Shown: positions 6,404-26,058 of the stretch, piece by piece
How the letters are laid out: each line of letters opens with the position of its first letter
How positions within the stretch are numbered: the first letter of the stretch is position 1
Sequence record: MN850577.1
Origin: Escherichia phage heid
Reading direction: 5' to 3' (one strand)
DNA: 64,000 bases
The notes under the pieces: model-generated
Database searches by the model: none
What the model was told of the DNA's origin: nothing
What the model saw: the letters and a program-made list of their open reading frames with translations, nothing else
Program-made: the position numbers and the translations under genes

Positions 6404-8020
6404 TCAACGTCTAAGCCCCTCATACGGGTTACCTCTCACTAAATCTGTGTGAGCACCCATTGATGGTGGCTTGAATAATTTAACTTCGTTAAGACTGTTG
6501 AAAGCATCACTGGTAGCATCCACTTGGTCATCTTTAGTTTTACCATCACCACAAAAGCCTTCAAGCTCTTGAAAGTAAGCTTCATTCCAACTACCTCTCA
6601 AGACTTTTACAAGTCCAGCTTCAGAAGCAGCAGAAAATCCCGCAAAGCGGGTAACTTTATCTTTATTTGTTGGTTTGGCTCTTGCTCGATAACCTTTCTC
6701 GGCAAGTTTCCTGATGAGGGATGTTGCGTAGGATTTACCAGCAGCGCCTGGGTCTTGAGGGATAAAAATACCAGTTCGCTTACCGTCACTTTCAGCAGTC
6801 AAATTAATTTGTGTTTCGACTCCAGAGGGTCTATCTCTAAATCTTACTACATCAATGATATAATAGCAACCGTCTTTTTTAGATTTACCCATCTTAACAC
6901 CTGCTGTCCAGTCTGGATTAGGGTTAACCTCAGATGGTAAAGTTGCTGCTAAGTCCCATGCTCTAACATCAAATACATCTTCTGGGAGTGAATCAACAAC
7001 TTCACACCATTGTCTTTGCCAATAGTTTGAACCTTCTGCACGAGCCTTCCAGTTACCGAAACGAAGTCTTGCAACGTTTACAGGAGTGTTGTTTTCCAAC
7101 TTACCACGGTACTTAGGCTCTAAGAAGTCAAGGATTGGGTTATCATCAATCGTACCAGAGATAAAGGTGTATGTTTGAGGAATCTCAAGAGGGAACATTT
7201 CAAGAATCTTGTCTCTCTCCCAATCAGAAACCATCACACCATCATTCATTACATACCAACGAATACGACCACATTTTTCAGGGTCTGGATAGCCTTCTTC
7301 ATCTAAGAATGGCTCTACCCAATCGTAAATAAAGTGGTCTCTGTCTGGGTTCATGGAAATCTTCATGTATGAATCACCTTCAGCACCAGAACGTAGACGG
7401 GTTTGTAGGTATGAAATCTGTGAAGCAGAGAAGTGTGTACCTTCGTCAAAGTAAATAGCTGAGTATTCAATACCCTGATGACCTTCAGCGTGCTTTTCAA
7501 GTTCTAGGTAGGTAAACTTGATAGTTGCCCCAGAAGGGAATGTGATGGTCATTTTCTGCTCGTGAGGAACCCCACCAAACTTACCAAATAGTTTCTTTGC
7601 AGCAGGCCATAAACCACCTTGTAGCTGTGTTGTATTTCGACGGAAATATACAGCATTATAGTTAGGGTCTTCAATAAACCTTAAAGAATCCATTAACAAT
7701 GCAGCAGTTTTACCAGCACCAGCAGCACCACCATAGAGAACCAAGTCAGCATTAGTATTTAAAAAGACCTCTTGAGAACCCGGCTGAGGGGCTACATAAT
7801 TCTTATCAGTCATCAATTTGAAGATAAGTCTAACTTGGTCTGGTGTGTATCTTAATAAAGTCAGAATTTGAGTTGGAAGGAATTTAGAGGGGTCTTTACC
7901 GAATGATTTGATAATTTCTTTTACTTCATCAGAAAGCCCCAACTCTCCAGCTAGGACTTTCCTAACATCTTCCACTCGCTTCTGCTTAACAGCATTTAAG
8001 TCCATTAAGCACCTCCGCAA
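6404..8020 (-). CDS. terminase large subunit
   Basis: 538 aa; N-terminal ATPase with P-loop (LYGGAAGAGKTAAL) and acidic Walker-B-like segment (AIYFDEGTH); C-terminal nuclease-sized domain; directly upstream of portal. Confidence 0.7.
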   Translation of the reverse strand: MRRCLMDLNAVKQKRVEDVRKVLAGELGLSDEVKEIIKSFGKDPSKFLPTQILTLLRYTPDQVRLIFKLMTDKNYVAPQPGSQEVFLNTNADLVLYGGAAGAGKTAALLMDSLRFIEDPNYNAVYFRRNTTQLQGGLWPAAKKLFGKFGGVPHEQKMTITFPSGATIKFTYLELEKHAEGHQGIEYSAIYFDEGTHFSASQISYLQTRLRSGAEGDSYMKISMNPDRDHFIYDWVEPFLDEEGYPDPEKCGRIRWYVMNDGVMVSDWERDKILEMFPLEIPQTYTFISGTIDDNPILDFLEPKYRGKLENNTPVNVARLRFGNWKARAEGSNYWQRQWCEVVDSLPEDVFDVRAWDLAATLPSEVNPNPDWTAGVKMGKSKKDGCYYIIDVVRFRDRPSGVETQINLTAESDGKRTGIFIPQDPGAAGKSYATSLIRKLAEKGYRARAKPTNKDKVTRFAGFSAASEAGLVKVLRGSWNEAYFQELEGFCGDGKTKDDQVDATSDAFNSLNEVKLFKPPSMGAHTDLVRGNPYEGLRR

Positions 8021-8026
8021 ATAGAA

Positions 8027-8227
8027 TTATTCAGAGTCTGTAGCAGTCTCTTCTTTCTTAACTTCGAACTTTGCATCAACAGCATCAAGAAGTGCATCCA
8101 TAGAGGCTTCTTTGATATCAATACCTGTTGCTACAGATAATCTATCTGCAATTGCCATGATAGTGTTCTGCATAAATTCTAGCTTTTTGTTAGCTTCATA
8201 AAGTTCTTTATAAACGGTCTCACTCAT
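8027..8227 (-). CDS. small coiled-coil protein (possible terminase small subunit or packaging accessory)
   Basis: 66 aa ORF directly upstream of large terminase; RBS GGAGAAA precedes the ATG. Confidence 0.3.
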   Translation of the reverse strand: MSETVYKELYEANKKLEFMQNTIMAIADRLSVATGIDIKEASMDALLDAVDAKFEVKKEETATDSE

Positions 8228-8449: not shown

Positions 8450-8525
8450 TGGAGAATCCGAAGGGACTCGAACCCTTATAAACCTGTTTTGCAGACAGGC
8501 ACATATCCATTTCTGTCACGGATTC
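8450..8525 (-). tRNA. tRNA-Cys (anticodon GCA)
   Basis: Hand-folded cloverleaf: acceptor GAATCCG/CGGATTC, anticodon stem CCTGT/ACAGG, loop CTGCAAA, T-loop TTCGAGT, CCA encoded. Confidence 0.7.
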
Positions 8526-8529
8526 AAAT

Positions 8530-8623
8530 TGGAGGAAGATACCAGACTTGAACTGGTACACCGATTTCTCAGCTACTGGCAGTTTAGCAAACTGCTCCCT
8601 TACCTTTTAGGGTTAATCTTCCA
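8530..8623 (-). tRNA. tRNA-Ser (anticodon GCT), long variable arm
   Basis: Acceptor GGAAGAT/ATCTTCC, anticodon stem GCAGT/ACTGC, loop TTGCTAA, long variable arm, T-loop TTCAAGT. Confidence 0.65.
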
Positions 8624-9358
8624 TTATTTCTGTAATGCGCTCTTCATTTCTGGTGTTGCAATAGTGTCAATCACACCAGTTTTACAAGCATCGTCAAACC
8701 AGTCTGGTAAGATACCTGCTAAGAACCCATTGATATTCGTTTTAAGGTACTCTGCAATAAGGGCAGCTTCTTCTTCAATCATCTGCACAACTTCATCTGC
8801 ATAAGCTGTAATCTTTGAAATACCTTCATTAATCTTACTGACAGCTTGGTTAGCTAAATCAGAAACAGTATCAAGACCCTTATCAATAGCATCTTGTAAG
8901 TCACTTAACACACCATTAACACTATCTAGTGTACTGTTCATCATGTCAATAGCTTTTTGACCATACTCTGTAGCAACACCCATGATACCACTGAATGGTG
9001 TACAACCAACTTGTTCTCCTGCTGCACCCATAACATTGGAATACCCCTTTGCTACCTGCATACGTGATGAAAACTCATCAATAGATTTTTGACCGTAGTC
9101 TGTCAGAGTTTTAGTAGTTGCTGTAGTGCTTGTAAGGCTTGTTGTAAAGCTGTTTAGAAGGACTGTTGTAAGTCCAGCAGCAACAAGTTTCTCCTTCATT
9201 GTAGGGTCTGTTACAGAACTAATAGAGCTTACAAGTGATGTAGAGGCAGCTACGGTTCCACCGAGAACTGCTGCACCAGTAATAAGCGGGTTAGAGAACC
9301 CTTTACCAGTTTTTAAGAGATTAAAAATCTCCTTACCTTGTTCTGTCATCTCTTTCAT
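8624..9358 (-). CDS. hypothetical protein (Thr/Ser-rich central region)
   Basis: The 265 aa ORF call extends into tRNA-Phe; the ATG at 9358 (MKEMTEQGKEIF...) is the likely true start, giving a 244 aa product. Confidence 0.45.
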   Translation of the reverse strand: MKEMTEQGKEIFNLLKTGKGFSNPLITGAAVLGGTVAASTSLVSSISSVTDPTMKEKLVAAGLTTVLLNSFTTSLTSTTATTKTLTDYGQKSIDEFSSRMQVAKGYSNVMGAAGEQVGCTPFSGIMGVATEYGQKAIDMMNSTLDSVNGVLSDLQDAIDKGLDTVSDLANQAVSKINEGISKITAYADEVVQMIEEEAALIAEYLKTNINGFLAGILPDWFDDACKTGVIDTIATPEMKSALQK

Positions 9359-9374
9359 TAAGCACCTTTGAAAT

Positions 9375-9449
9375 TGGTAGTCCAGTGGGATTTGAACCCT
9401 CTTCTCATGTTTTTCAGACACGCGCTTTAACCATATAAGCTACTTGGAC
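9375..9449 (-). tRNA. tRNA-Phe (anticodon GAA)
   Basis: Acceptor GTCCAAG, D-stem GCTT/AAGC, anticodon stem CGTGT/ACATG, loop CTGAAAA, T-loop TTCAAAT, CCA encoded. Confidence 0.75.
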
Positions 9450-9457
9450 TATAAATT

Positions 9458-9532
9458 GGGGTGACCTACGGGATTTGAACCCGTATAGACCATGTTCACA
9501 GCATGGGTCATTACCGTTTATGATAAGGCCAC
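9458..9532 (-). tRNA. tRNA-His (anticodon GTG)
   Basis: Acceptor GTGGCCT/AGGTCAC, D-stem TCAT/ATGA, anticodon stem CCATG/CATGG, loop CTGTGAA. Confidence 0.7.
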
Positions 9533-9563
9533 ATTTAAGGACTCTCGCAAGAATCCTTAGAAG

Positions 9564-9639
9564 TGGCAGCGGCATAAGGATTTGAACCTTAATAGGACAG
9601 CTTCAGAGGCTGCTGCATTGCCAGTTATGCTATACCGCT
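9564..9639 (-). tRNA. tRNA-Gln (anticodon CTG)
   Basis: Acceptor AGCGGTA/TGCCGCT, anticodon stem GCAGC/GCTGT, loop CTCTGAA, T-loop TTCAAAT. Confidence 0.65.
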
Positions 9640-9644
9640 AAATT

Positions 9645-9723
9645 TGGTACTCCATATCGGATTCGAACCGATACATAACACAGATTTTAAGTCTGGCCTC
9701 TCTGCCAATTGGAGTAATGGAGC
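9645..9723 (-). tRNA. short tRNA with leucine-type anticodon TAA, no long variable arm, discriminator A
   Basis: Acceptor GCTCCAT/ATGGAGT, anticodon loop CTTAAAA on a 4-bp stem, T-loop TTCGAAT; about 79 nt. Confidence 0.5.
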
Positions 9724-9725
9724 AT

Positions 9726-9800
9726 TGGCGGGGGATGTTGGAATTGAACCAACTTCTTCGATTTCAAAGACCGAGGTTTTAACCTTGTAAACTAATCCCC
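9726..9800 (-). tRNA. tRNA-Gln (anticodon TTG), tentative
   Basis: Anticodon stem TCGGT/ATCGA, loop CTTTGAA, T-loop TTCAATT; acceptor pairing imperfect in my fold. Confidence 0.5.
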
Positions 9801-9809
9801 TTTAAATCT

Positions 9810-10367
9810 TTACTTTCTCAGTGGATGAATAAAGAATGCCAACATAACTCTTTCCCTTGAGAATGCTCTTTCTTCTGGGACAACACTTTTTAGTTTCCAT
9901 CCAATATAAATTCTCCAGTAAAATTGTTTACCAAAGATTTTAATTGATGGGATAAAAGCGAATAATCCCCAAGCATTACTGTTCCACATTAGGAGATAAC
10001 CTGTCTGATTATCTTCGGGGTCAGAACTTACGTTGATATTACCTTTCCACTTAGTAACATCTCTTACATCTCTTCCTAATACATGGTAAGAGAAGTTATA
10101 AGCTTTGTTTCTCCAGAGCCATCCGACTCTTTGCATGTAGACACCTAGTTTACCAATCCATCTAATATTAGCCCATCTTTTAACGTGACCTTCATCACCA
10201 TCAATTGGGTTGTCATATGTCTCCATCCATCTGAACCCGAAAGGTAAGTGCCCTTTCTTCTCACTGTAGAATGGAACTACAAAAGGTGCTAAGATAACTG
10301 CTAAGATTGCTGCAAATGGCTCTAACAAAGCTAAGAAAATCCATGAAGCATACTTCAAATATCTCAT
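9810..10367 (-). CDS. hypothetical membrane protein embedded in the tRNA cluster
   Basis: 185 aa ORF with hydrophobic N-terminus (IFLALLEPFAAILAVILAPFVVPF) and W/Y-rich body, flanked by tRNA genes. Confidence 0.5.
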   Translation of the reverse strand: MRYLKYASWIFLALLEPFAAILAVILAPFVVPFYSEKKGHLPFGFRWMETYDNPIDGDEGHVKRWANIRWIGKLGVYMQRVGWLWRNKAYNFSYHVLGRDVRDVTKWKGNINVSSDPEDNQTGYLLMWNSNAWGLFAFIPSIKIFGKQFYWRIYIGWKLKSVVPEERAFSRERVMLAFFIHPLRK

Positions 10368-10386
10368 CTAAATAGCCTCTTTAAAT

Positions 10387-10462
10387 TGGCGCAGGATAAG
10401 GGATTCGAACCCCTATTAACAGCTTCGTAGACTGTTGCTCTATCCATTTGAACTAATCCTGC
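10387..10462 (-). tRNA. tRNA-Arg (anticodon ACG)
   Basis: Acceptor GCAGGAT/ATCCTGC, D-stem GTTC/GAGC, anticodon stem ACAGT/GCTGT, loop CTACGAA, T-loop TCGAATC. Confidence 0.7.
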
Positions 10463-10467
10463 AAAAT

Positions 10468-10545
10468 TGGTGTTCCAAGACGGATTCGAACCGTCACTAA
10501 TACAAGGTTTGAGCTTGCATCCTCTGCCAATTGGGATACTGGAAC
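10468..10545 (-). tRNA. short tRNA with leucine-type anticodon CAA, no long variable arm, discriminator A
   Basis: Acceptor GTTCCAG/TTGGAAC, anticodon stem GCAAG/CTTGT, loop CTCAAAC, T-arm GACGG-TTCGAAT-CCGTC; about 78 nt. Confidence 0.5.
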
Positions 10546-10546
10546 A

Positions 10547-10621
10547 TGGTACTCACTAAAGGACTTGAACCTTTTTCTTCATCTTGTAAGGGTGATGTTT
10601 TACCATATAAACTAAGCGAGT
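10547..10621 (-). tRNA. tRNA-Val (anticodon TAC)
   Basis: Acceptor ACTCGCT/AGTGAGT, D-stem GTTT/AAAC, anticodon loop CTTACAA, T-arm AAAGG-TTCAAGT-CCTTT. Confidence 0.6.
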
Positions 10622-10715
10622 ATGAAAGAGGTCTGAAGTTGTGCCGCTAACTCAACTTCGTGGAATTTGTTACGGTCTTCAGTTGACTCAAAGCGGTCTT
10701 TCACTTGACCTCTGA
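10622..10715 (-). ncRNA. structured non-tRNA element between tRNA genes (candidate small RNA or processing element)
   Basis: About 90 nt with outer inverted repeat AGAGGTC...GACCTCT and inner 7-bp hairpin GAAGTTG...CAACTTC; carries the recurrent GGTCTTCAG motif; does not fold as a cloverleaf. Confidence 0.3.
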
Positions 10716-10717
10716 AT

Positions 10718-10793
10718 TGGTGCTCCCACAAGGACTCGAACCCTGATAAGTTGCTTACAAGGCAACCGTAATAACCAATTATACGATAGGAGC
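10718..10793 (-). tRNA. tRNA-Thr (anticodon TGT)
   Basis: Acceptor GCTCCTA/TGGGAGC, anticodon stem GTTGC/GCAAC, loop CTTGTAA, T-arm CAGGG-TTCGAGT-CCTTG. Confidence 0.7.
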
Positions 10794-10800
10794 ATTAATT

Positions 10801-10877
10801 TGGAGCATCCAGAGGGAATCGAACCCTCAACCTCAGTTTGGAAGACTGTAATTTTCCCGTTTAAACTATGGATGCAC
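10801..10877 (-). tRNA. tRNA-Gly (anticodon TCC)
   Basis: Anticodon stem ACAGT/ACTGA (one mismatch), loop CTTCCAA, T-loop TTCGATT, CCA encoded. Confidence 0.6.
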
Positions 10878-10881
10878 TAAT

Positions 10882-10957
10882 TGGTGGAGTCACTGAGAAT
10901 TGAACTCAGTTCCCAAGTTTGCAAAACTCGAATTTTAACCATATAAACTATGACCCC
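10882..10957 (-). tRNA. tRNA-Ala (anticodon TGC)
   Basis: Acceptor GGGGTCA with G3:U70 wobble (alanine identity element), D-stem GTTT/AAAT, anticodon stem CGAGT/ACTTG, loop TTTGCAA. Confidence 0.7.
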
Positions 10958-10963
10958 ATTGTT

Positions 10964-11039
10964 TGGTACAGGTGGAGGGAATTGAACCCATCGTCTTACT
11001 GATTAAGAGTCAGCCGCATAACCATTTTGCTACACCTGC
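10964..11039 (-). tRNA. tRNA-Lys (anticodon CTT), tentative
   Basis: Acceptor GCAGGTG/CACCTGT, anticodon stem GCTGA/TCAGT, loop CTCTTAA, T-loop TTCAATT. Confidence 0.55.
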
Positions 11040-11046
11040 ATTAATT

Positions 11047-11123
11047 TGGTACACCTAGAGAGATTCGAACTCACACTGAGCAGATTCTAAGTCTGCTGCC
11101 TCTACCAGTTGGGCTATAGGTGC
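11047..11123 (-). tRNA. short tRNA with leucine-type anticodon TAG, no long variable arm, discriminator A
   Basis: Clean 76-nt cloverleaf: acceptor GCACCTA/TAGGTGT, anticodon stem GCAGA/TCTGC, loop CTTAGAA, T-loop TTCGAAT. Confidence 0.6.
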
Positions 11124-11377
11124 ATTAAATCTTTTTAGAGAACTTCTAAGAACCTGAGCAACAAGGTTCCACAACAAGCGACTAATAACCTTAGAAGCCC
11201 TCTAAAAAGACCTAAATAGGTCTTTGCATAGTCTTGTTTAATCCGGTGACTAGAACCTTTGGAGAGCTTGATATTATCTCTTCTCCGTGACACCTACTAG
11301 GTGCTTTGACAGTGTACGACAATACACGAGGGATAAACCGACAATGCGAACAAGCATGGACGGAGTAAATCTTATTA
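11124..11377 (-). ncRNA. ORF-free about 250-nt spacer in tRNA cluster (candidate structured RNA, e.g. Y-RNA-like or intron remnant)
   Basis: No convincing ORF (the 64 aa call 11212..11406 overlaps tRNA-Ser); multiple local inverted repeats; lies between two tRNA genes. Confidence 0.25.
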
Positions 11378-11467
11378 GGCGGTAAGTAAAGGAGTCGAAC
11401 CCTCACCGTATCTCTACAGTGGCAACAGTTTTCAAGACTGTTTGGCTGCCATTAGCCGCTACCTACC
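11378..11467 (-). tRNA. tRNA-Ser (anticodon TGA), long variable arm
   Basis: Acceptor GGTAGGT/ACTTACC, anticodon stem ACAGT/ACTGT, loop CTTGAAA, long variable arm, T-loop TTCGACT; terminal CCA not fully encoded. Confidence 0.65.
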
Positions 11468-11480
11468 CCTAATAAGACTT

Positions 11481-11567
11481 TGGCATGGGACGGAGGAGTT
11501 GAACCCCTTTGAAACGGTTTTGGAGGCCGTTGCTCATGCCTTAGAGTCTTAACATCGTCCCATATTA
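11481..11567 (-). tRNA. atypical tRNA-like gene (possibly anticodon CCA, Trp); structure not canonical in my fold
   Basis: Acceptor ATGGGAC/GTCCCAT, T-loop TTCAACT, CCA encoded; candidate anticodon loop CTCCAAA, but the D region is over-long. Confidence 0.4.
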
Positions 11568-11700
11568 TAATTCGAAGCTTACCCTGTTATCTCAACACTG
11601 TCAAGCTTCTTCTCAGATTATTTACATGTTCTGGAAAACATGAGATACAGACCACCTCCCTACAGGAAGACCCGCTTAGGTCGTCTAAGTAATCTGCTAA

Positions 11701-12048
11701 CTAATACTTTGCATGTCTTACCCTATGGCAATTTGAACATAGCAAAACACATTTGTCAAGTTCATCTTTTAGTTCTTGAGAGAACTTAAGGCTTTTCCTA
11801 TGACCAATGTTAAAATCTTTATCTGAAGGATTCAAATGATGGAAGTCATACACTGCTGGATGATATTTCTTACCACAATCATGACAAACCCCACCTTTGT
11901 ACTCAATAGCTGAGAGTTTAAGTGCTCTTTGTCTTTCTATGGTTTGCTCATTAACACACTTTTTACAGTATGAATGAGTTCTCCTACCATCTTTCATGTA
12001 GAAATCATTTTCATCCTTGCTAAGTTTGCACCTAATACAAGTTTTCAT
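11701..12048 (-). CDS. HNH homing endonuclease inserted in the tRNA cluster
   Basis: Likely start MKTCIRC at 12048; paired zinc-binding motifs CIRC...CKKC and CHDCG...CSNCH plus HH...N typical of HNH nucleases; sits between tRNA genes. Confidence 0.6.
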   Translation of the reverse strand: MKTCIRCKLSKDENDFYMKDGRRTHSYCKKCVNEQTIERQRALKLSAIEYKGGVCHDCGKKYHPAVYDFHHLNPSDKDFNIGHRKSLKFSQELKDELDKCVLLCSNCHRVRHAKY

Positions 12049-12062
12049 GATTTCTCCAAAAT

Positions 12063-12144
12063 TGGTCGAGGCGGCAGGACTCGAACCCGCATACTCCACT
12101 TACTCGGTTAACGTCTGTTTAGAAGACAGATGAGATACGCCCCG
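12063..12144 (-). tRNA. tRNA-like gene, type undetermined (an anticodon-like loop reads TCT)
   Basis: Acceptor CGGGGCG/CGCCTCG, T-arm GCGGG-TTCGAGT-CCTGC, CCA encoded; the internal arms do not fold canonically by hand. Confidence 0.4.
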
Positions 12145-12392
12145 TAATTATCTTTAAAGACTCTCTTAGAAAGCCCTTAAAGATGCCCACCTTATTAATC
12201 ATACCGTGGGCGAGTACGCCAAATTCTTTGATGAGGGATTGGAAGACCTCACTGGTGTTTAGCCTATCAAGCTACTGCCAGAAAAACATTGTCGTTTGCA
12301 TTTATTTTAAATTTGCAAAATAGACGCTACGCAACGAAAACTAAGGTTACTATAAAGTAGTCACATCTCAATGTCAACAACTTTATTGAAAT
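12145..12392 (-). ncRNA. ORF-free about 250-nt spacer in tRNA cluster (candidate structured RNA)
   Basis: No ORF; AT-rich with embedded TTGACA-like boxes; between the HNH-adjacent tRNA and tRNA-Ile. Confidence 0.2.
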
Positions 12393-12468
12393 TGGTACTG
12401 GTAGGTGGAATCGAACCACCGATGTTCCCTTATCAGGGGAGTGTTATAACCTTCTTAACTATACCAGC
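12393..12468 (-). tRNA. tRNA-Ile (anticodon GAT)
   Basis: Acceptor GCTGGTA/TACCAGT, anticodon loop CTGATAA on stem TCCC/GGGA, T-arm GGTGG-TTCGATT-CCACC. Confidence 0.6.
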
Positions 12469-12469
12469 T

Positions 12470-12546
12470 TGGAGGTTCAGATGGGAATCGAACCCACATT
12501 CATAGGGCTTATGAGACCCTTGCATTACCTTATCTGCGACTGAACC
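12470..12546 (-). tRNA. tRNA-Met (anticodon CAT; could be elongator, initiator or Ile2)
   Basis: Acceptor GGTTCAG/CTGAACC, anticodon stem AGGGT/GCCCT, loop CTCATAA, T-loop TTCGATT. Confidence 0.6.
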
Positions 12547-12550
12547 ATAT

Positions 12551-12626
12551 TGGTAGAAGTGGAGGGATTCGAACCCATCGCCTGTCAGATTAAAAGTCTG
12601 CCGCATCACCATTCTGCTACACTTCC
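12551..12626 (-). tRNA. tRNA-Lys (anticodon TTT)
   Basis: Acceptor GGAAGTG/CACTTCT, anticodon loop CTTTTAA, T-loop TTCGAAT. Confidence 0.6.
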
Positions 12627-13056
12627 ATTAAATTATCTTTGTAGATAAGCTACCCAGACTTGCTTAAGGTCTGTAGCGATGTGCCTTTTTTGGGTTTAAA
12701 TCTAGAATTTACCCATTCACCCTTTGTGGTCGCATACTCACAAGTAAGCTTAATAACTTATCTACAAAGGTAATTACCAGACCGTTGTTTATCATCTTAA
12801 GTGCTACCATTACACCAACTCGACATCTGCCGAGTGAAGGAATCGAACCTTCGCCTTTTCTTTACCGGAGAAATAGATTGTTTAAGTTTTGCTGTAAACG
12901 GCCTTCTGTAAATTTGTTGAGCCAGACCAAGTTTTAAATTTTCAAAATTAAATTGGCTTGAAATTTCATACATTCTTGCTGTATTTGGTCTTCTGCTCCC
13001 TTAAAGAATACTCGTAAGAACTCTTTAAGGGAGGGGCTAAATAGCCCTCTCAAAAT
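12627..13056 (-). ncRNA. ORF-free spacer with tRNA-like fragment (T-arm GAAGG-TTCGATT-CCTTC near 12830) and repeated trailer motifs
   Basis: Contains a T-arm-like hairpin without a complementary acceptor partner, two copies of TTGCTGTA..GG(C/T)CTTCTG, and a GGGGCT/AGCCCT hairpin near 13030. Confidence 0.25.
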
Positions 13057-13133
13057 TGGCGGCTACGATGAGACTTGAACTCACATCATCTCCCGTGACA
13101 GGGGAGTATTTTCTCCAGTTAAACTACATAGCC
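13057..13133 (-). tRNA. tRNA-Asp (anticodon GTC)
   Basis: Acceptor GGCTATG/CGTAGCC, anticodon stem CTCCC/GGGAG, loop CTGTCAC, T-arm GTGAG-TTCAAGT-CTCAT. Confidence 0.7.
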
Positions 13134-13138
13134 TTTAT

Positions 13139-13226
13139 TGGTGTGCCGTGTAGGAGTCGAACCTACCGAGTCTCAATGACAAGGGATTTACAGTCCCCAC
13201 CGCTACCATCTACGGGATAACGACAC
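13139..13226 (-). tRNA. tRNA-Tyr (anticodon GTA), long variable arm
   Basis: Acceptor GTGTCGT/ACGGCAC, anticodon stem GGGGA/TCCCT, loop CTGTAAA, long variable arm, T-loop TTCGACT. Confidence 0.65.
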
Positions 13227-13234
13227 ATTTAATT

Positions 13235-13311
13235 TGGCGGTTAGTCAGGGATTCGAACCCTGTGCCATTCGCTTAACAGGCGACCGCACATACCTTATGT
13301 GCTTCCTAACC
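13235..13311 (-). tRNA. tRNA-Asn (anticodon GTT)
   Basis: Acceptor GGTTAGG/ACTAACC, anticodon loop CTGTTAA, T-arm CAGGG-TTCGAAT-CCCTG. Confidence 0.6.
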
Positions 13312-13389
13312 TTAATACATTGCCAGACCGTGTTTTTTCTGTTATCCGCAAAAAAGTATTTTGTTGCTGAATACGGTCTTCTGCAAAAT

Positions 13390-13465
13390 TGGAGGCGGGT
13401 GCAGGAGTCGAACCTGCCGATACCATGCTAATGAGACATGTGAGACGCCCTTTCTCTATACCCGC
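13390..13465 (-). tRNA. second tRNA with anticodon CAT (Met/fMet/Ile2)
   Basis: Acceptor GCGGGTA/TGCACCC, anticodon stem CATGT/GCATG, loop CTCATTA, T-loop TTCGACT. Confidence 0.6.
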
Positions 13466-13557
13466 AATTCTTAATGACCAGACCAAATCTCTTCTTTGTC
13501 CGATTTACCTTCAGATGAATAAGATTAAGTTTGCTGTAATTGGTCTTCTGTCAAAAC

Positions 13558-13635
13558 TGGCGTTCCAGAAGGGATTTGAACCCTCAGATATCCACTTTGA
13601 AAGAGTGGTGACTATACCATTTTGTCTACTGGAAC
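13558..13635 (-). tRNA. tRNA-Glu (anticodon TTC)
   Basis: Acceptor GTTCCAG/CTGGAAC, anticodon stem CCACT/AGTGG, loop CTTTCAA, T-loop TTCAAAT. Confidence 0.7.
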
Positions 13636-13642
13636 ATTAATT

Positions 13643-13718
13643 TGGTCTCTGTTGGAGGACTTGAACCTCCGGCCTTACCGCCCCAAACGGAACGCTCTAC
13701 CAATCTGAGCTAAACAGA
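13643..13718 (-). tRNA. tRNA-Pro (anticodon TGG)
   Basis: Acceptor CTCTGTT/AACAGAG, D-arm AGCTCAGATTGGTAGAGC, anticodon loop TTTGGGG, T-arm GGAGG-TTCAAGT-CCTCC. Confidence 0.65.
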
Positions 13719-13837
13719 GATAAACTTTTCAAACTCTATGTAACCACTTTAACATTATTTTTTAGTGATTGTCAAGAACTTTTTTAAAATATTTTTCAGT
13801 ATCTTAGAAAAGCTCTCATTTCGCTTCTATGTAGAAC

Positions 13838-13884: not shown

Positions 13885-15300
13885 TTACCAGATATAACGG
13901 TCAATCATTACTGCTTTGAGCATTACACTGATTGGGTCAAACTTCTCACCACCAAGCAGAGCTTTTAAAGTGGCTGGAGAGAACCCTGATACCATTGCTA
14001 CACCGTTATCCTTAACAGATACTTCGCAAGTACCATTACGGTTTGCTAAGTACCAGAATACCAGTTGTGGCATCTCATATCCAGCTTTTTTGTACTTACT
14101 CTGAATTGCTTCAAAGTTTGTACGACCGTTAGCTCCATCAACCTGATTAAACTCCATATCGGAGAAGATGATAAGCTTACTTGGCATATCTTTCTGAGTC
14201 AAGTTGTTTCTTTTACCTGTTTCAAGAATGCGGTCAAAAGCTGCTTGTAAGTTAGTTGAGCCATATTCAACGTGTCGCATCACCTGACGATGACGGTTTC
14301 GTAAATCACCACTCAGTTCGATGAAGTGAGGGTTTGTTGAATAAACCATTAACTCATTCTTAAAGCAACCTGTATTGCGTTCTGCTACATACAAGGCAAG
14401 TGATACACCAATATCCAGAGCAGTAATGGAGCCAAAATTCACCCAAGACATTGAACTTGATACATCAGACATACACAAGATGTTTTCACCTTCTGCCATC
14501 CAGTTTGGTAGTGCTTTCCACTGCTCATTAGCAACATCTGCATTACCATACTTGACAGATTTAATCACATCGTATGGGTAAACAGCACCAGCGTTAATCT
14601 TAGTCTCACCTTTTGATAAGGACTCGATGTAAGCTTTGTAACGCTCTCCATCTTTACGGTTAAACAGTTTTTGGTAACGTGCAGCAGCAAGTGAAGGAAT
14701 CTTACTGTAGTCAATCTTACCAAACTCATTAGCAGAGATTTTTTGCTCAACTGTATCAGATAGTGCAGACAACAGTGTGCGGTACTCTTTCTCACTCAAG
14801 TTGGCAAACTTGCAGAAACGTTTTACAAACTGCTTATGACGTGGTTTGACTCGTGGTAACCACTTAGCCGCCAAACCTGCTGTTGCAGGGTCTAGTAATG
14901 CTGCTTCTAAATGTTTGAAGGCATCTGTCTCGAAACGAGTACCTACGAAGATTTTGAAGTCATCAAAACGACCAAGTTCTGCAATCTTATCCATAATGCG
15001 AAGAACCTGCGTAGACTCTAAAACTTTGTCTTCAATTGCTTGAAGCAAAACAGTTCTGAAGGCTTTACGCTCACCCATACCTTCTCGTACATCTCGCATA
15101 TGAAGCAAAATACGAACTGCAACATCAACATCCTCACGCAAAGCTTTGTAGAACAGGTCTGGTAAGATTTCTACGTTGCTACGGCTTGAACCAGCAGCTT
15201 TGTAAAAGTTTACTAGAGCAGACATTGATGAAGTATGGTTTACAGCACCATTTTCAGTTCGACCTGCATGAAGGTGCGCATGTTTAAATAATTCGCTCAT
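13885..15300 (-). CDS. vWA-domain protein with MIDAS motif; possibly TROVE/Ro60-like or DUF2828-like
   Basis: 471 aa; helical N-terminal about 270 aa, then a DxSxS MIDAS motif (CMSDVSSSMS) and a C-terminal segment ending LIIFSDMEF, as in vWA folds; adjacent to the tRNA cluster. Confidence 0.45.
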   Translation of the reverse strand: MSELFKHAHLHAGRTENGAVNHTSSMSALVNFYKAAGSSRSNVEILPDLFYKALREDVDVAVRILLHMRDVREGMGERKAFRTVLLQAIEDKVLESTQVLRIMDKIAELGRFDDFKIFVGTRFETDAFKHLEAALLDPATAGLAAKWLPRVKPRHKQFVKRFCKFANLSEKEYRTLLSALSDTVEQKISANEFGKIDYSKIPSLAAARYQKLFNRKDGERYKAYIESLSKGETKINAGAVYPYDVIKSVKYGNADVANEQWKALPNWMAEGENILCMSDVSSSMSWVNFGSITALDIGVSLALYVAERNTGCFKNELMVYSTNPHFIELSGDLRNRHRQVMRHVEYGSTNLQAAFDRILETGKRNNLTQKDMPSKLIIFSDMEFNQVDGANGRTNFEAIQSKYKKAGYEMPQLVFWYLANRNGTCEVSVKDNGVAMVSGFSPATLKALLGGEKFDPISVMLKAVMIDRYIW

Positions 15301-17010: not shown

Positions 17011-17382
17011 ATGAAAGCTAAGAGTGCAAAAGACTTTTATTGCTTCCTACAATCCTATATCAATTCCGTGCAAAATGGTGAAAGGTACAACCTTAATGAT
17101 GTTATCCCAACACCTTTGACATGGAGACTCAGCAAATGGCCTGAAGAAGATATTACACCAACAAGCGAACAACGCACCTACAAACCTGAAATCAATATTC
17201 CAGATTCTGAGAATCTACTATATCCAATGTTCCATATTGTTGGTCTTGGAAGATTCCTTATGGATATCCAGTATGTAATTGGTAAGGGTTATAAGGTTAA
17301 AGGTATTGTTGTTGGTGATGTATCTCCACATCACAAAGGTTATTTTAGACTAAACGCACATTTAGAGGCTAAAAAGAAATGA
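17011..17382 (+). CDS. hypothetical protein, paralog of the N-terminal domain of the downstream Ig-like protein
   Basis: 123 aa; shares motifs with residues 1-125 of the next gene (PLTWRLSKWPEEDI vs PLTYSSYWPEADI; FLMDIQYVIGKG vs FMDLQYAIINGK); ATGA overlap with the next gene. Confidence 0.55.
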   Translation: MKAKSAKDFYCFLQSYINSVQNGERYNLNDVIPTPLTWRLSKWPEEDITPTSEQRTYKPEINIPDSENLLYPMFHIVGLGRFLMDIQYVIGKGYKVKGIVVGDVSPHHKGYFRLNAHLEAKKK

Positions 17383-18512
17383 TTAAAGCAAAGACTTACC
17401 CAGACTTCAAAGAGTTTGTGAAGGGCTTCATTGCAAACGTAAAAGCTGGTAAGAGATATGATTTTAGAGCATATCAAGAGGCTATTTTACCGCTTACCTA
17501 TAGTTCGTATTGGCCTGAAGCTGATATTGCAGAAGTTGAGGAGTTTGACTACAAACCAGACTACAAAGTTCCATTTAGTGATGAGTTGCTTTACAACATT
17601 GGTGCTCAAATGAGAACTTCTGACTTCTTCATGGACTTACAATATGCAATTATCAATGGTAAAGATGTTGATACAATTTATTGTGAATGGCTGGCAAGAG
17701 TTAAACCGTTCTCAATGTTGAATGCTAAGTTGAAGGATGCTATCAAGCCACCATCAATCACTCAGCAACCAACCAATCAAACAGTAAATGAAGGGGGTAC
17801 ACTTACCCTAAGCGTTATTGCAACTAATGTCACTGGATATCAATGGAAAAAGGATGGTGAGGACATCCCTAGTGCCAATTCTGCAACTTACACAAAACAG
17901 TCAGTAGCACCTTCTGACGCTGGTTCATACACTTGTGTTGTATCTGGAGAGGGTGGAACAAGTGTTACCTCAGATGCAGCAACAGTGACTGTGAACGCAC
18001 TACCTGTGATTACACAACAACCTTCTAGCCAGACCATCAATGAGGGTGGAAACATCAGCTTGGAAGTGACTGCAACGGGTGCAACGGGTTACCAGTGGAA
18101 GAAAGATGGCTCTGACATTCCTTCAGCGACAAATGCTACCTATAGCAAGTCTGGTGCTCTGCCAGCAGATGCAGGTTCATACACTTGCGTTGTAACAGGT
18201 GCAGGTGGTTCTGTTACTTCTAGCCCTGCAACAGTTACTGTGAATGCACTTCCGGTAATCACTCAGCAACCAACCAATCAAGAAATCACTGAAGGTGAGA
18301 CCTTAACACTGAATGTTGTGGCAACAGGTGCGACAGGTTATCAGTGGAAGAAAGGTGAGGAAGTCATCCCAGACGCAACTGCTGCAACTTACACCAAAGA
18401 AGGTGCAACCGCTGCTGATGCAGGAAGCTACACCTGTGTAGTGACTGGCGCAGGTGGCTCTGTAACATCTAATGCGGCAACAGTTACAGTTAACCCAGCA
18501 GGGGAGGCATAA
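17379..18512 (+). CDS. Ig-like-repeat protein (Hoc-like surface/adhesin candidate)
   Basis: 377 aa; N-domain paralogous to the upstream gene, then three tandem about 83-aa repeats (ITQQP..NEGG.L.L.V.ATG.TGYQWKKDG.DIP.A..ATY.K....DAGSYTCVV.G.GG.VTS..ATVTVN) with Ig-like W and Y-x-C positions. Confidence 0.6.
   Translation: MIKAKTYPDFKEFVKGFIANVKAGKRYDFRAYQEAILPLTYSSYWPEADIAEVEEFDYKPDYKVPFSDELLYNIGAQMRTSDFFMDLQYAIINGKDVDTIYCEWLARVKPFSMLNAKLKDAIKPPSITQQPTNQTVNEGGTLTLSVIATNVTGYQWKKDGEDIPSANSATYTKQSVAPSDAGSYTCVVSGEGGTSVTSDAATVTVNALPVITQQPSSQTINEGGNISLEVTATGATGYQWKKDGSDIPSATNATYSKSGALPADAGSYTCVVTGAGGSVTSSPATVTVNALPVITQQPTNQEITEGETLTLNVVATGATGYQWKKGEEVIPDATAATYTKEGATAADAGSYTCVVTGAGGSVTSNAATVTVNPAGEA
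17754..18500 (+). repeat. three tandem about 249-bp coding repeats (Ig-like domains)
   Basis: Near-identical DNA segments, e.g. actcagcaaccaaccaatcaa at about 17761 and 18261; repeat unit equals one Ig-like domain. Confidence 0.6.
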
Positions 18513-22639: not shown

Positions 22640-23201
22640 TGGTGTGATAGCTATGGAAAAAGATAACTTAAAAGAAGTTGAAGGTAACTACCTAGTACTT
22701 GACTGGAGCGATATTCGGGAAGCACTATCCGAAGAAAGCCTTGACCTGCTAGAGCAACTTATCTTCTCAGTACGCCATACCAGAGGTATTGTAAACGGTA
22801 AAGAGCCACTTGAAGGAATCTTTGTAGAGAAGTCTTATCCGTTCTATGAAGACACCTTGCAGAAGGTTAAAATGTACTTCAGACAGAAGAACCGTAAAGT
22901 GGTCACTATGGTATCTCTTGGTGGACAGAGTATGTCTATTATGGAAGATATCAACCCTAAGAGACCGAGTAAAGGTGTCTGTATAAAAATCACAGGTCAT
23001 GAAGAGTATATCTCAGCAAGTGATTTTAGTGTATTCTGTAATGGTTCTGCTGTCTTTAATGGGTTTCACTATGATATCCGAGTGTACCCAATCAAGGGAG
23101 ATGCTGTTATGATGCAGATATTCGATAACAACAACGGATTCACTCATTTTTATCAGACAACCAAGTCATCACTAAAAACAGTTTTAGAAAGTCTGATTTA
23201 A
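22596..23201 (+). CDS. hypothetical protein (start uncertain, possibly MEKDNLKEV at about 22653)
   Basis: 201 aa ORF; last gene of the plus-strand block, followed by a hairpin/T-run near 23205-23245. Confidence 0.45.
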   Translation: MATSLQYQPTKFYDNGVIAMEKDNLKEVEGNYLVLDWSDIREALSEESLDLLEQLIFSVRHTRGIVNGKEPLEGIFVEKSYPFYEDTLQKVKMYFRQKNRKVVTMVSLGGQSMSIMEDINPKRPSKGVCIKITGHEEYISASDFSVFCNGSAVFNGFHYDIRVYPIKGDAVMMQIFDNNNGFTHFYQTTKSSLKTVLESLI

Positions 23202-23204
23202 AAT

Positions 23205-24880
23205 ATCTTAAGAGCCTCCTTAATTGGGGGCTTTTTAATTTTTATAAAATTCCATCGGTTGTCCCAACCTCTGGGTCACCAGCATATGTGAACAAAATAT
23301 CTATCCTTCTTAACAACCCTCTTAATCTTACTCTCTATATAGTTATATAGTACTATATAGTATCTTAGTAACTATCTAGTGGTCTTAATAGCCCTCTGTA
23401 TAACCCTTCTAACAAGCCCTCTAACAAGCCTTCTTAACAACCTATACAATCACCTTAACCATCTCTCTATACCCTCTTAGAAGCTCCTATACACCTCTTA
23501 ATCTCTAGGTTAGCTATGATACCCTCTATAGGTGTTCACTAGGTATTACTAAGCCTCTATATAGACTGTTTTAACAAACTTAACAGGAATATCTTTACAG
23601 ACCTTATCTCACAAGGTCTAACACGGTACTAACAAGGTATCTTATAAGCCTGTTATTACCTGTATTTTTAAAAGACTGTCTAGGTAATTATTCAGAATCT
23701 TAAAATTTTTATAAAATAGGACTATCAAGTCATTTTTTAGGGTCTTTGAAGGAACTGAAAAATATCTGTAGAAGATGTATATCTGCTTGGTAGCCCTTAA
23801 CAACTCCCTTACAAGTACTTTGCAAAATTTTAAAATATCCTTAACAATTTCTTAACAACTCTCTCAAGCTCTTAACAACCCTTCAAAGGTCTTAACAGAT
23901 TCTTAACAGAACTAACAAGGCTGTAACAGTTTTCTAGGGATTGGTAACAATACCAATTAACAAGTGCTGAATAGGCTTTACAGAATCTTAACAGATGACT
24001 AACAAGAGCTAACAAGTTAATTTTAAAGAGTTATTTTGTTAAGATAATTAACAAGTCTCTAACAAGTGTTTAATCTTTTTAACAAGCTATTAACATGGTC
24101 ACTATCTCTTGGTCTATAGTTCCCTTTCCCTCTTAGTGATTCTTTAAACATACCTCTTAAAAGCTCTCTATAGCTCTTTATAAGCTCTTTTAAGTCTCTT
24201 CCTAGTAGTTACACCCCAACTATACAGAAAGCTCTTTATAGGGCTTTACAGGAGCTTTTAAGGCTATGTCAAAGGCTCTTACAAGGTTTTTACATGGTCT
24301 TAACAGAGATTTAACAAGGGGCTAACAAGTTGCTAACAAGTGCCTTAAAAGCATAACTATGTAGGGTTTGTTAAGAAATTGTTAAGAAATTGTTAAGAAA
24401 ATGTTAAGGGGGCTAGCATTTACGTAACTTTTAAGCTACTTTATAGCCCCTATAACATACTTTTAAGACACTAACAAGCCCTTTTTAGATATTCACAAGA
24501 TAGCTAACGAGATGATAAAGCTTACACCCTTATAAGATTCTTTTAAGGCTGTAGGAAGCTTTATAAAGAGCTTTTAAGGGTGAGTTAATGCAATCCCTTA
24601 AGTTAGGTTGATAAGGCTGTTATAGAGCTTTATAGAGCGTTTAAACGGTTGCCCTTCCCTTTCGGGTTATGGGCTTTTATTTAAGTTGATTTGATAAGAG
24701 ATTATAGAGTAGACTATAGAGTTATTGCTTTTAAGGTCTGGTAAGATTCTATCGAATCAGTAGGGTAGATTCTGGAAAGGAAAGGAAAGGGATTGTATAG
24801 AGGTTATTACATAGACGTAAAAAAAGCCCCTATGAGAAGGAGCTTTGCAGGTATCTGGGGCTATTTAGCCCCGTTGCGTC
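23205..24880. repeat. 1.65 kb ORF-free repeat-dense region (TAACAA(G)-family short repeats in both orientations, tandem TTGTTAAGAAA x3, TATAGAG/TATATAG runs)
   Basis: No ORF of 60 aa or more in any frame; dozens of cttaacaa / ctaacaag / ttgttaag copies by eye; three exact tandem ttgttaagaaa units near 24363-24400; lies between the convergent plus- and minus-strand blocks. Confidence 0.7.
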
Positions 24881-24882
24881 GA

Positions 24883-25131
24883 TTAGTTGTAACCTTGTTT
24901 ATTGTAGTACAGTGAGATAATCAAGTCACCCCAGTAATGATAGTGATGCTCGTCGTTTAATGCCTCTTTTACAGCGTCTTTCCAGAAGTCATCAGTAGGG
25001 TTATAATCTGGGATAACTTGCTTGATAACTGTCTTCACTAATGAAAAGCATTCATCAGTTCCACCGATATCAAATTTAACGTCCAGAGTATAACAGCCAT
25101 AAGCATTGACAGTTGCGCGGATAGTTGCCAT
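24883..25131 (-). CDS. small-gene array gene 1, hypothetical (82 aa)
   Basis: ORF starting directly after a conserved type-A intergenic element (RBS TAGGAGA + 7 nt + ATG). Confidence 0.55.
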   Translation of the reverse strand: MATIRATVNAYGCYTLDVKFDIGGTDECFSLVKTVIKQVIPDYNPTDDFWKDAVKEALNDEHHYHYWGDLIISLYYNKQGYN

Positions 25132-25200
25132 TTTTTGAATCTCCTAGTTTAAGGACTTTACTTAGTGGGGAAGGTCATTCCCTCCCCGTTGATTAGTAAT
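25132..25200 (-). repeat. type-A intergenic element (copy 1)
   Basis: Minus strand: stop-ATTACTAATCAAC-GGGGAGGG-AATGA-CCTTCCCC-ACTAAGTAAAGTCCTTAAACTAGGAGATTCAAAA-ATG; hairpin plus RBS. Confidence 0.7.
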
Positions 25201-25464
25201 TTACTGCATGTTGGCGTATGTTGCAAGCCTTTTTTCGTTGTATTTTGTCAGAATCTCACAAGATAAAACATCATATTTTGTAACCGCTTTGCCTTTGTCG
25301 AGGTCAAAGAATCCGAACGCTTTACCATCTTTGAATCCGACAACTTCGTAAGATTCTTTGATGATTTCACCATTGAACAAATCACTTTCGATACGGTGAA
25401 ATAATGCTACATCTTCTTTGTCGGTTGCAATTTGTAAAAGTGTGGTTAATTCTACGTTTTCCAT
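25201..25464 (-). CDS. small-gene array gene 2, hypothetical (87 aa)
   Basis: ORF bounded on both sides by type-A elements. Confidence 0.55.
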   Translation of the reverse strand: MENVELTTLLQIATDKEDVALFHRIESDLFNGEIIKESYEVVGFKDGKAFGFFDLDKGKAVTKYDVLSCEILTKYNEKRLATYANMQ

Positions 25465-25527
25465 CTTGATGCCCCTAGTTTAAGGATTTTATTGAGTGGG
25501 GGAGGTCATCCCCCGTTAATGAGTAAT
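25465..25527 (-). repeat. type-A intergenic element (copy 2, diverged 5' end)
   Basis: tagtttaaggattttattgagtgggggaggtcatcccccgttaatgagtaattt; same hairpin core. Confidence 0.6.
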
Positions 25528-26058
25528 TTACAGATTTTTGATTGTCTCGTCAATGTCTTTTTCAATATCTTTTAAAGTTTTTTCTAAGTTCTTGATATTG
25601 AAAGATAAACCCTCTCCCAATGTTTTGCTGTAACCACTAGGGCGCAAGTCATGCAGTTCGATTTCTTCCACTTCGAAGAGACTAACCAACTCACCGCTTA
25701 CACTGTAAGCCATTGAAACAGTATTTACAGGGGCTTTATAGAACTTGTTTAAGGACTTGATAGAACGCTCATAAGCCATTTTATAACCGTTTAAAAGGTC
25801 TTTAACGTGGTTGCGAACGTTTTTACACTCATCTAAGTAAATCCCTAAGAATAGCGGTAATAACTCTGCTACAGCTTGCATAAAGTGAGAGACTACAACG
25901 GTTGCAACATTACGACGATGTACATAATAAGCCCCATTTTCTGATTTAGTGATGGTTGCAAAGTGTACCCCATTGCAGCGAAATTCGTAGGTATCTTTAA
26001 CAGGCTTAGCCATTACAGCATTTGAACGAATGTAGTTGATAGCTTGAAATTTGTTCAT
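25528..26058 (-). CDS. small-gene array gene 3, hypothetical (about 176 aa)
   Basis: Start revised to the ATG at 26058 (MNKFQAINY...) because the longer ORF call runs through the conserved element; RBS TAGGAGA at canonical spacing. Confidence 0.55.
   Translation of the reverse strand: MNKFQAINYIRSNAVMAKPVKDTYEFRCNGVHFATITKSENGAYYVHRRNVATVVVSHFMQAVAELLPLFLGIYLDECKNVRNHVKDLLNGYKMAYERSIKSLNKFYKAPVNTVSMAYSVSGELVSLFEVEEIELHDLRPSGYSKTLGEGLSFNIKNLEKTLKDIEKDIDETIKNL

Follow-up and report, generated by a model that had tools for sequence, protein, structure and literature searches.

The genome of Escherichia phage heid (MN850577.1), of which a 64-kb stretch of DNA (hereafter the window) was analysed at its full length, contains a long gene-free region at 23205-24880, the gap, which is crowded with short repeats of the TTAACA type. 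Comparison with related phages whose genome ends have been mapped makes it very probable that the gap is a concatemer junction, composed of a left unique flank, one copy of a direct terminal repeat (DTR) and a right unique flank, and bracketed by convergent terminators. On the same homology, and with the same high confidence, we assign 23789-24413 (625 bp) as a short exact DTR of about 610-625 bp that would be expected at both ends of the packaged DNA. Within this predicted repeat lie 33 helically phased T(A/T)ACA sites, which most likely represent putative binding sites for a phage packaging or end-processing protein. The identity of the DTR is already known for the genus, since experiments have located the homologous repeat, whose sequence appeared in print in 2016; for the phased arrays, which combine a 6-bp core repeated every 11 bp with inverted sites at one boundary and are conserved across the Ounavirinae, no description was found in the literature searched, nor was any report of a protein that reads them.

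Sequence matches place the window in the genus Felixounavirus (Felix O1-like phages). In total, 256 phage records match 23205-24880; 200 of these span 80% or more of the region with identities of 80-95%, and nearly all are Felixounavirus phages from Escherichia, Salmonella, Shigella and Citrobacter. Many public records begin or end inside the region, always at one of two points; those of pEP20, D4, ECP2307, EcSzw_1 and NJ12 are examples. The record of Ro111lw (MH571750) carries the same 613 bases, 100% identical, at both of its ends, and these correspond to the 613-bp direct terminal repeat reported for that phage from PhageTerm (PMC6454146). Mooglevirus HP1 likewise has an annotated 570-bp repeat_region at both ends, and the repeats of both phages map to 23789-24413. 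Ro111lw and HP1 both start with GCCCCCTTAACATTT and finish with GTTAAGGGCTACC, the equivalents of which in the window are positions 23789 and 24413, such that the DTR edges in the window (GGTAGCCCTTAACA... on the left and ...TGTTAAGGGGGC on the right) are common to the two relatives.

Experimental support comes from UAB_Phi87, in which a 608-bp DTR was determined by Bal31 digestion and run-off sequencing, with its sequence given in Figure S1 (PMC4837284). When extracted, this DTR aligns over its whole length to window positions 24394-23787, equivalent to 23787-24405 once the difference in repeat number is allowed for. A DTR of 581 bp was reported for Pr103Blw, again with PhageTerm (PMC8303462). 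The repeats of these four Felix O1-like phages are homologous to that of the window, at 81-95% identity, and match it both in boundary sequences and in their position between converging gene blocks (PMC4837284, PMC6454146, PMC8303462, PMC9120918). The window repeat differs from them in its length of 625 bp, because it has one more 11-bp unit than Ro111lw, and in that its ends are placed by homology. It occurs as a single copy in the window, which fits a concatemer-like or collapsed assembly.

The gap is the longest stretch of the window without an open reading frame (ORF) of at least 60 aa (23202-24882, 1681 bp); the next-longest such stretches, of 1134 and 844 bp, are tRNA clusters, and no tRNA genes were found within the gap. 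The first-pass annotation of this DNA, made from its letters, had pointed to about 1.65 kb devoid of such ORFs at the place where plus- and minus-strand gene blocks converge, and both observations hold: the plus-strand block ends at 23201 and the minus-strand block at 24883, each being closed by a predicted intrinsic terminator (Table 1). In the naming of the Felix O1 paper, the gap sits between the converging transcription units '40-24' and '97-131/1-23' (PMC3185647). The absence of ORFs is not in itself unusual, because 166 of 500 mononucleotide shuffles of this AT-rich sequence likewise lacked a 60-aa ORF; the oddity is that a compact genome should contain 1.7 kb of non-coding sequence. Shorter ORFs of 53, 47 and 40 aa do occur within the gap, but in close relatives stop codons or frameshifts interrupt all three. 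On the right flank, a GC-stem hairpin followed by TTTTATTT (GCCCTTCCCTTTCGGGTTATGGGCTTTTATTT) at 24648-24680 (+), spotted by eye, resembles an extra intrinsic terminator; its absence from the output of the terminator scan is probably due to a loop that is too long.

The region has attracted little annotation. GenBank labels within it are confined to 'repeat_region', 'terminator' and the occasional 'hypothetical protein', and we regard the last of these as over-calls, given that the gap ORFs are interrupted in relatives. The genome papers on Felix O1 (PMC3185647) and wV8 pass over the gap without comment, the PhageMaP paper on Bas63 holds no data on it, and a literature search for a Felixounavirus transcriptome returned nothing relevant.

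Saturation of the gap by TAACAA(G)-type motifs, also claimed in the first-pass annotation, was borne out by the counts. Taking both orientations together, T(A/T)ACA occurs at 48 sites in the gap, and the 33 that fall in 23789-24413 give a density of 52.8/kb, compared with 6.8/kb over the remainder of the window, where the count per 625-bp stretch never exceeds 12. Adjacent sites in the gap are exactly 11 bp apart in 16 of 47 cases, against 4 of 421 in the rest of the window, with a further eight spacings within 9-13 bp and six within 20-22 bp. Longer words are similarly enriched: 14 of the 26 matches to TAACAAG in the 64 kb lie in 23410-24478, all 14 on the plus strand; CTTAACA has 39 matches in the window, a number reached by no shuffle, of which 16 are within 23309-24408; and TAACAA was observed 13 times in the arrays at 23798-24095, where 0.25 would be expected (k-mer enrichment). 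Fourier analysis of the whole gap gave a peak at 10.4-11.9 bp with a value of 5.04, compared with 2.42 ± 0.76 (maximum 5.9) in other stretches; because this peak exceeds the others only moderately, we prefer the spacing histogram as evidence of periodicity.

The arrays are also strongly oriented, with 27 of the 33 DTR sites pointing one way and six the opposite way, and four of these six, at exact 11-bp phase, adjoin the right boundary (24369-24402). This inverted set contains the three exact tandem TTGTTAAGAAA units listed in the first-pass annotation, located at 24368-24408 and accompanied by one variant unit, for which Tandem Repeats Finder (TRF) reported a period of 11, 3.7 copies and 96% matches. 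The copy number of the 11-bp unit varies, with one fewer in Ro111lw, FO1a, Bas63 and others than the three exact units plus variant of the window. The same set (24368-24410) forms an inverted repeat, I2, with 23830-23858 near the left boundary, the two being 90% complementary over 29 nt. Motifs of the tatatag/ctctatag type, another element of the earlier description, are present as CTCTATAG, CTTTATAG and CTTTTAAG, and a second motif family, CT(C/T)T(A/T)(A/T)AG, occupies the centre and right part of the region at 10/11/21-bp spacing.

Conservation is concentrated on the motif cores. The position-wise profile peaks on T-A-A-C-A, and across genera the T(A/T)ACA cores score 0.85 for conservation and the remaining DTR positions 0.71 (permutation p about 0.004). 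Identity between genera is 84-86% over the gap as a whole and 71-78% over the coding sequences on either side. The left boundary, at which TGTATATCTGCTT meets GGTAGCCCTTAACA, does not vary among Felixounavirus, Mooglevirus and Suspvirus and is almost unchanged in the Kolesnikvirus phiEa21-4, and the right boundary, at which TGTTAAGGGGGC meets TAGC(A/T)TTTACGTAAC, is invariant across eight Felixouna-, Moogle- and Suspvirus genomes. The 44-nt element inside the left boundary (Table 1) is also matched in Erwinia Kolesnikviruses, where the remaining gap can no longer be aligned. Erwinia phage phiEa21-4 and Pectobacterium phage Arno162 have a gene-free gap of 1.2-1.5 kb at the equivalent place, rich in TTAACA/TGTTAA sites 11 bp apart that form a direct pair to one side and an inverted run to the other. 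The architecture of the junction is kept across five Ounavirinae lineages. In Erwinia phage vEam_W_25 (Kolesnikvirus), a 401-bp repeat stands at both record ends, at the homologous position. The last 9 bases of that record (PP079183.1), after ...GGCCAC, are AGATCGGAA, an Illumina adapter remnant, and its location directly after the conserved terminal sequence provides incidental evidence for a physical DNA end in vEam_W_25.

Table 1. Features of the gap and of the predicted concatemer junction, in window coordinates.
Feature	Position	Strand	Basis or description
Predicted intrinsic terminator closing the plus-strand gene block	23210-23235	+	Terminator scan: 10-bp stem then T-run; homologous site annotated as terminator in AYO145A and Moogle
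Left unique flank (predicted)	23245-23788		CTATATAG run at 23333-23380; 12-bp CCTTCTAACAAG x2.9 repeat at 23405-23440; 10 T(A/T)ACA sites
Conserved block TGTATATCTGCTT, just outside the left DTR boundary; candidate cleavage/recognition context	23776-23788		Genus comparison
Arrays A/B	23798-24095	+	Site list: 21 T(A/T)ACA sites, 19 of them in + orientation; in most cases 11 or 20 bp apart
Most conserved element, TTTGCAAAATTTTAAAATATCCTTAACAATTTCTTAACAA, 44 nt, about 30 bp inside the left DTR boundary	23818-23861		91% identical in Pectobacterium phage Arno162
Central DTR block, CT(C/T)T(A/T)(A/T)AG family	24150-24265		Motif scan: 10/21-bp spacing
Array C	24246-24340	+	Site list: 7 T(A/T)ACA sites, of which six (24279-24334) are exactly 11 bp apart
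Inverted array, TTGTTAAGAAA x3 + ATGTTAAGGGG	24368-24410	-	4 TTAACA sites at exact 11 bp; adjoins the right DTR boundary
Conserved block TAGCATTTACGTAAC, just outside the right DTR boundary	24414-24428		Genus comparison
Right unique flank (predicted)	24414-24820		CTTTTAAG/CTTTATAG/CTTATAAG motifs at 11/21-bp spacing; + strand G-rich
Predicted intrinsic terminator closing the minus-strand gene block	24823-24846	-	Terminator scan; homologous site annotated as terminator in AYO145A and Moogle

A plausible working of this junction can be drawn by analogy with T7-type short-DTR phages. In the T7 paradigm, each concatemer junction holds one DTR, terminase cuts at its boundaries and the repeat is duplicated. 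Replication of the phage studied here would similarly yield head-to-tail concatemers with one DTR copy per joint; the terminase (TerL) would recognise the junction and cut between TGTATATCTGCTT and GGTAGCC on one side and between GGGGGC and TAGCATTT on the other, after which duplication of the DTR would provide every packaged genome with a copy at either end. The stretches at 23245-23788, which falls outside the terminal repeat of Ro111lw and HP1, and at 24414-24820 would then be unique non-coding DNA just inside the two genome ends, and the convergent terminators may shield the junction from the flanking transcription units. TerL itself is encoded at 6404-8020 (Terminase_6N/6C, PHROG 979); the large terminases of Felix O1-like phages have been reported as a DTR cluster, and no small terminase is known in the group (PMC4837284). 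A 66-aa ORF at 8027-8227 (-), directly upstream of TerL, belongs to PHROG 4397, of unknown function, and may be a candidate small terminase.

The part played by the arrays in such a scheme would be to attract a phage DNA-binding protein that coats or wraps the phased sites and marks the junction for end formation. We infer a protein of this kind because the sites lie on one helix face, coincide with the best conserved positions and include an inverted set at the cut site; the candidate reader could be either a small terminase that is still cryptic or a factor for end processing, and it would position both cuts. A bolder and distinctly tentative proposal is that the TTAACA arrays form a nucleoprotein landmark conserved across the Ounavirinae and read by an unrecognised phage protein, with the inverted sets at 23830-23858 and 24379-24407 positioning two opposite-strand cuts and thereby setting the length of the repeat; we consider this possible, with the balance of probability leaning the other way.

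Several better-known systems share features with this junction. The terminal repeat of T7 (NC_001604) is 160 bp long, and 11 copies of CCTAAAG, with 13-bp spacing, occur in the first 800 bp at the left end of the genome; the T7 short-repeat arrays were reportedly named SRL and SRR by Dunn and Studier in 1983. Binding of a packaging or end-processing protein to the CCTAAAG arrays has been proposed. Common to T7 and the window is a short exact terminal repeat combined with a 6-7-bp motif that occurs at the junction in many copies, mostly in one orientation and with regular spacing. The two differ in motif (TTAACA here, CCTAAAG in T7) and in period (11 bp against 13 bp), and the repeat is four times longer here, with most sites inside it rather than just inside unique DNA and with an inverted set at one boundary; moreover, the TerL of this phage is of the T4-like Terminase_6 type and no phage RNA polymerase promoters flank its junction. 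As the motifs are unrelated, the region resembles the T7 junction in organisation and not by family membership.

The parC centromere of plasmid R1, in which ten 11-bp iterons are bound by ParR, similarly uses 11-bp phased direct repeats to place a protein on one face of the DNA, but the window comes from a strictly lytic phage, the surroundings of the gap showed no par genes and the sites here are in a terminal repeat. The R sites of lambda cosB and the pacL/pacR boxes of SPP1/SF6 are small-terminase recognition sites with phased repeats, and, as in the window, they comprise several short sites about one helical turn apart beside a cleavage site, an arrangement that suits wrapping of DNA on an oligomeric protein. 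They differ from the window in that the sites here are far more numerous (33 in 625 bp), that their binding is putative and that no small terminase is known in the subfamily (PMC4837284).

Some observations weigh against a terminal repeat marked by a dedicated packaging protein, or limit the precision with which it can be drawn. The termini of this phage are assigned by homology alone, and the experimental and PhageTerm boundaries of relatives lie 2 nt apart at one end and 8 nt at the other. When one is inverted, the two boundaries resemble each other only modestly, with 18 of 2000 shuffles scoring as well (p about 0.009). Evidence on termini in Kolesnikvirus is partial, as the left end of vEam_W_25 stops about 45 bp before the expected boundary. 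Fifi318 (PQ051114.1) is uninformative: its record is said to have been rearranged to PhageTerm termini, but it lacks repeated ends and starts beside the TerL operon, and its junction homologue lies 7.8 kb from the end. The six ORFs flanking the gap, all in PHROGs of unknown function, yielded no candidate for a small terminase or another binding protein, and the function of the CCTAAAG arrays in T7 is itself unsettled.

The first-pass annotation had listed four candidate functions for the gap, and its interpretation is partly supported, since one of the four proved right: the DTRs of relatives map here, as a packaging or terminal-repeat region would have it. Its second candidate, a protein-binding array, is compatible with the 11-bp phasing and with the conservation of cores over spacers, from which it follows as a likely deduction, and the question is rather which protein would bind. 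Should it be one unrelated to packaging, such as host RNA polymerase sigma-70, a nucleoid protein or a phage end-protection or ejection factor, it would act on the first or last DNA entering the cell. The match of TTAACA to the -35 hexamer TTGACA at 5 of 6 positions, the enrichment of TATAG-type -10-like motifs, the placing of sites on one helix face by 11-bp phasing and their location in the terminal 625 bp of both genome ends would all suit such a protein. However, promoter-like pairs are not significantly enriched (11, compared with 6.7 ± 2.7 in shuffles). In addition, the inverted set sits exactly at a cleavage boundary and the sequences of both boundaries are conserved, linking the motif to the formation of genome ends; we therefore consider an unrelated protein unlikely, while keeping it in view. 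The remaining two candidates of the earlier annotation, an iteron-bearing origin and a non-coding RNA, found no positive support. An origin, at which a phage or host initiator would bind the arrays as iterons and melt adjoining AT-rich DNA, might coexist with the terminal repeat and would explain many direct repeats beside an AT-rich stretch of the left flank (about 23660-23760, GC about 0.31); T7 has secondary origins near its genome end. Local GC skew also changes sign across the gap, from -0.63 at 23300-23499 to +0.47 at 24600-24799, with a cumulative minimum at about 24200-24300, but this flip tracks motif orientation, which changes across the gap, the strand asymmetry of 23300-24800 reflecting a large-scale layout in which the motifs are inverted about the right part of the DTR. 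At the scale of the genome, cumulative skew has a local maximum at the gap and follows gene orientation. Cores of 6-9 bp with an 11-bp period and more than 30 copies are, moreover, unlike the 3-8 iterons of 17-22 bp of an origin, no initiator-like gene lies nearby (the PHROGs of the six neighbouring ORFs are all of unknown function) and the gap contains no conserved ORF, all of which renders an origin improbable.

Two further explanations fare considerably worse. One or more non-coding RNAs encoded in the gap would account for its highly conserved non-coding sequence and for folds that are steadier than those of shuffles in three sub-regions (z-scores of -2.4, -4.5 and -3.2), yet the stability of the folds stems from the inverted TTAACA/TGTTAA sets, which are repeats at the DNA level, and conservation sits in short phased cores instead of paired stems. 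Rfam 15 gave no match at E <= 0.1 in 22900-25200 on either strand (the best, at E = 0.2, lay on a flanking terminator), the excess of promoters is not significant and terminators insulate the gap, making an RNA locus very unlikely. Non-functional filler, in the sense of slippage-prone junk between converging operons, is scarcely credible: the copy number of the 11-bp unit does vary among relatives, and ORF absence alone is not improbable in AT-rich sequence, but between genera the gap has changed less than the genes beside it, its motif cores are conserved over the spacers, its architecture is kept in five Ounavirinae lineages and it holds the experimentally mapped genome ends of UAB_Phi87. 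The earlier annotation had allowed for filler if, among other conditions, close relatives lacked the region; a homologous region is present and conserved in related phages.

Other features of the window were noted in passing. Among the small minus-strand genes beside the gap, an intergenic element of ~70 bp is repeated at 25133-25205 and 25462-25531, and it may match direct repeats that the Felix O1 paper lists between genes. A cluster of 25 tRNAs at 8450-13719 (-) lies between the gene for a DUF2828/DUF7788 protein (13885-15300) and that for the large terminase. The 377-aa protein encoded at 17379-18512 (+) has three immunoglobulin-like domains (Ig_3, I-set and Ig_2); at the corresponding place in phiEa21-4, the annotation of gene 38 gives a conserved structural protein that contains an Ig-like domain.

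Recognition of the junction has immediate consequences for annotation, as it places the physical genome ends and identifies the assembly as circularly collapsed or permuted; the record should begin at about 24413 or 23789, with the repeat given twice. For phage engineering, the junction is a place either to avoid or to target deliberately. Phages of the Felix O1 group are widely used in Salmonella and E. coli diagnostics and in biocontrol, and they have no identified small terminase. Only in T7-like podophages is there an understanding of the way in which short exact terminal repeats are recognised and duplicated, and even that is incomplete. The junction described here, compact, highly conserved and built on a simple phased 6-bp site, poses a modest and testable question in this respect and, if its arrays are indeed read as a landmark, the recognition of short DTRs in the Ounavirinae would follow a logic distinct from that of T7.

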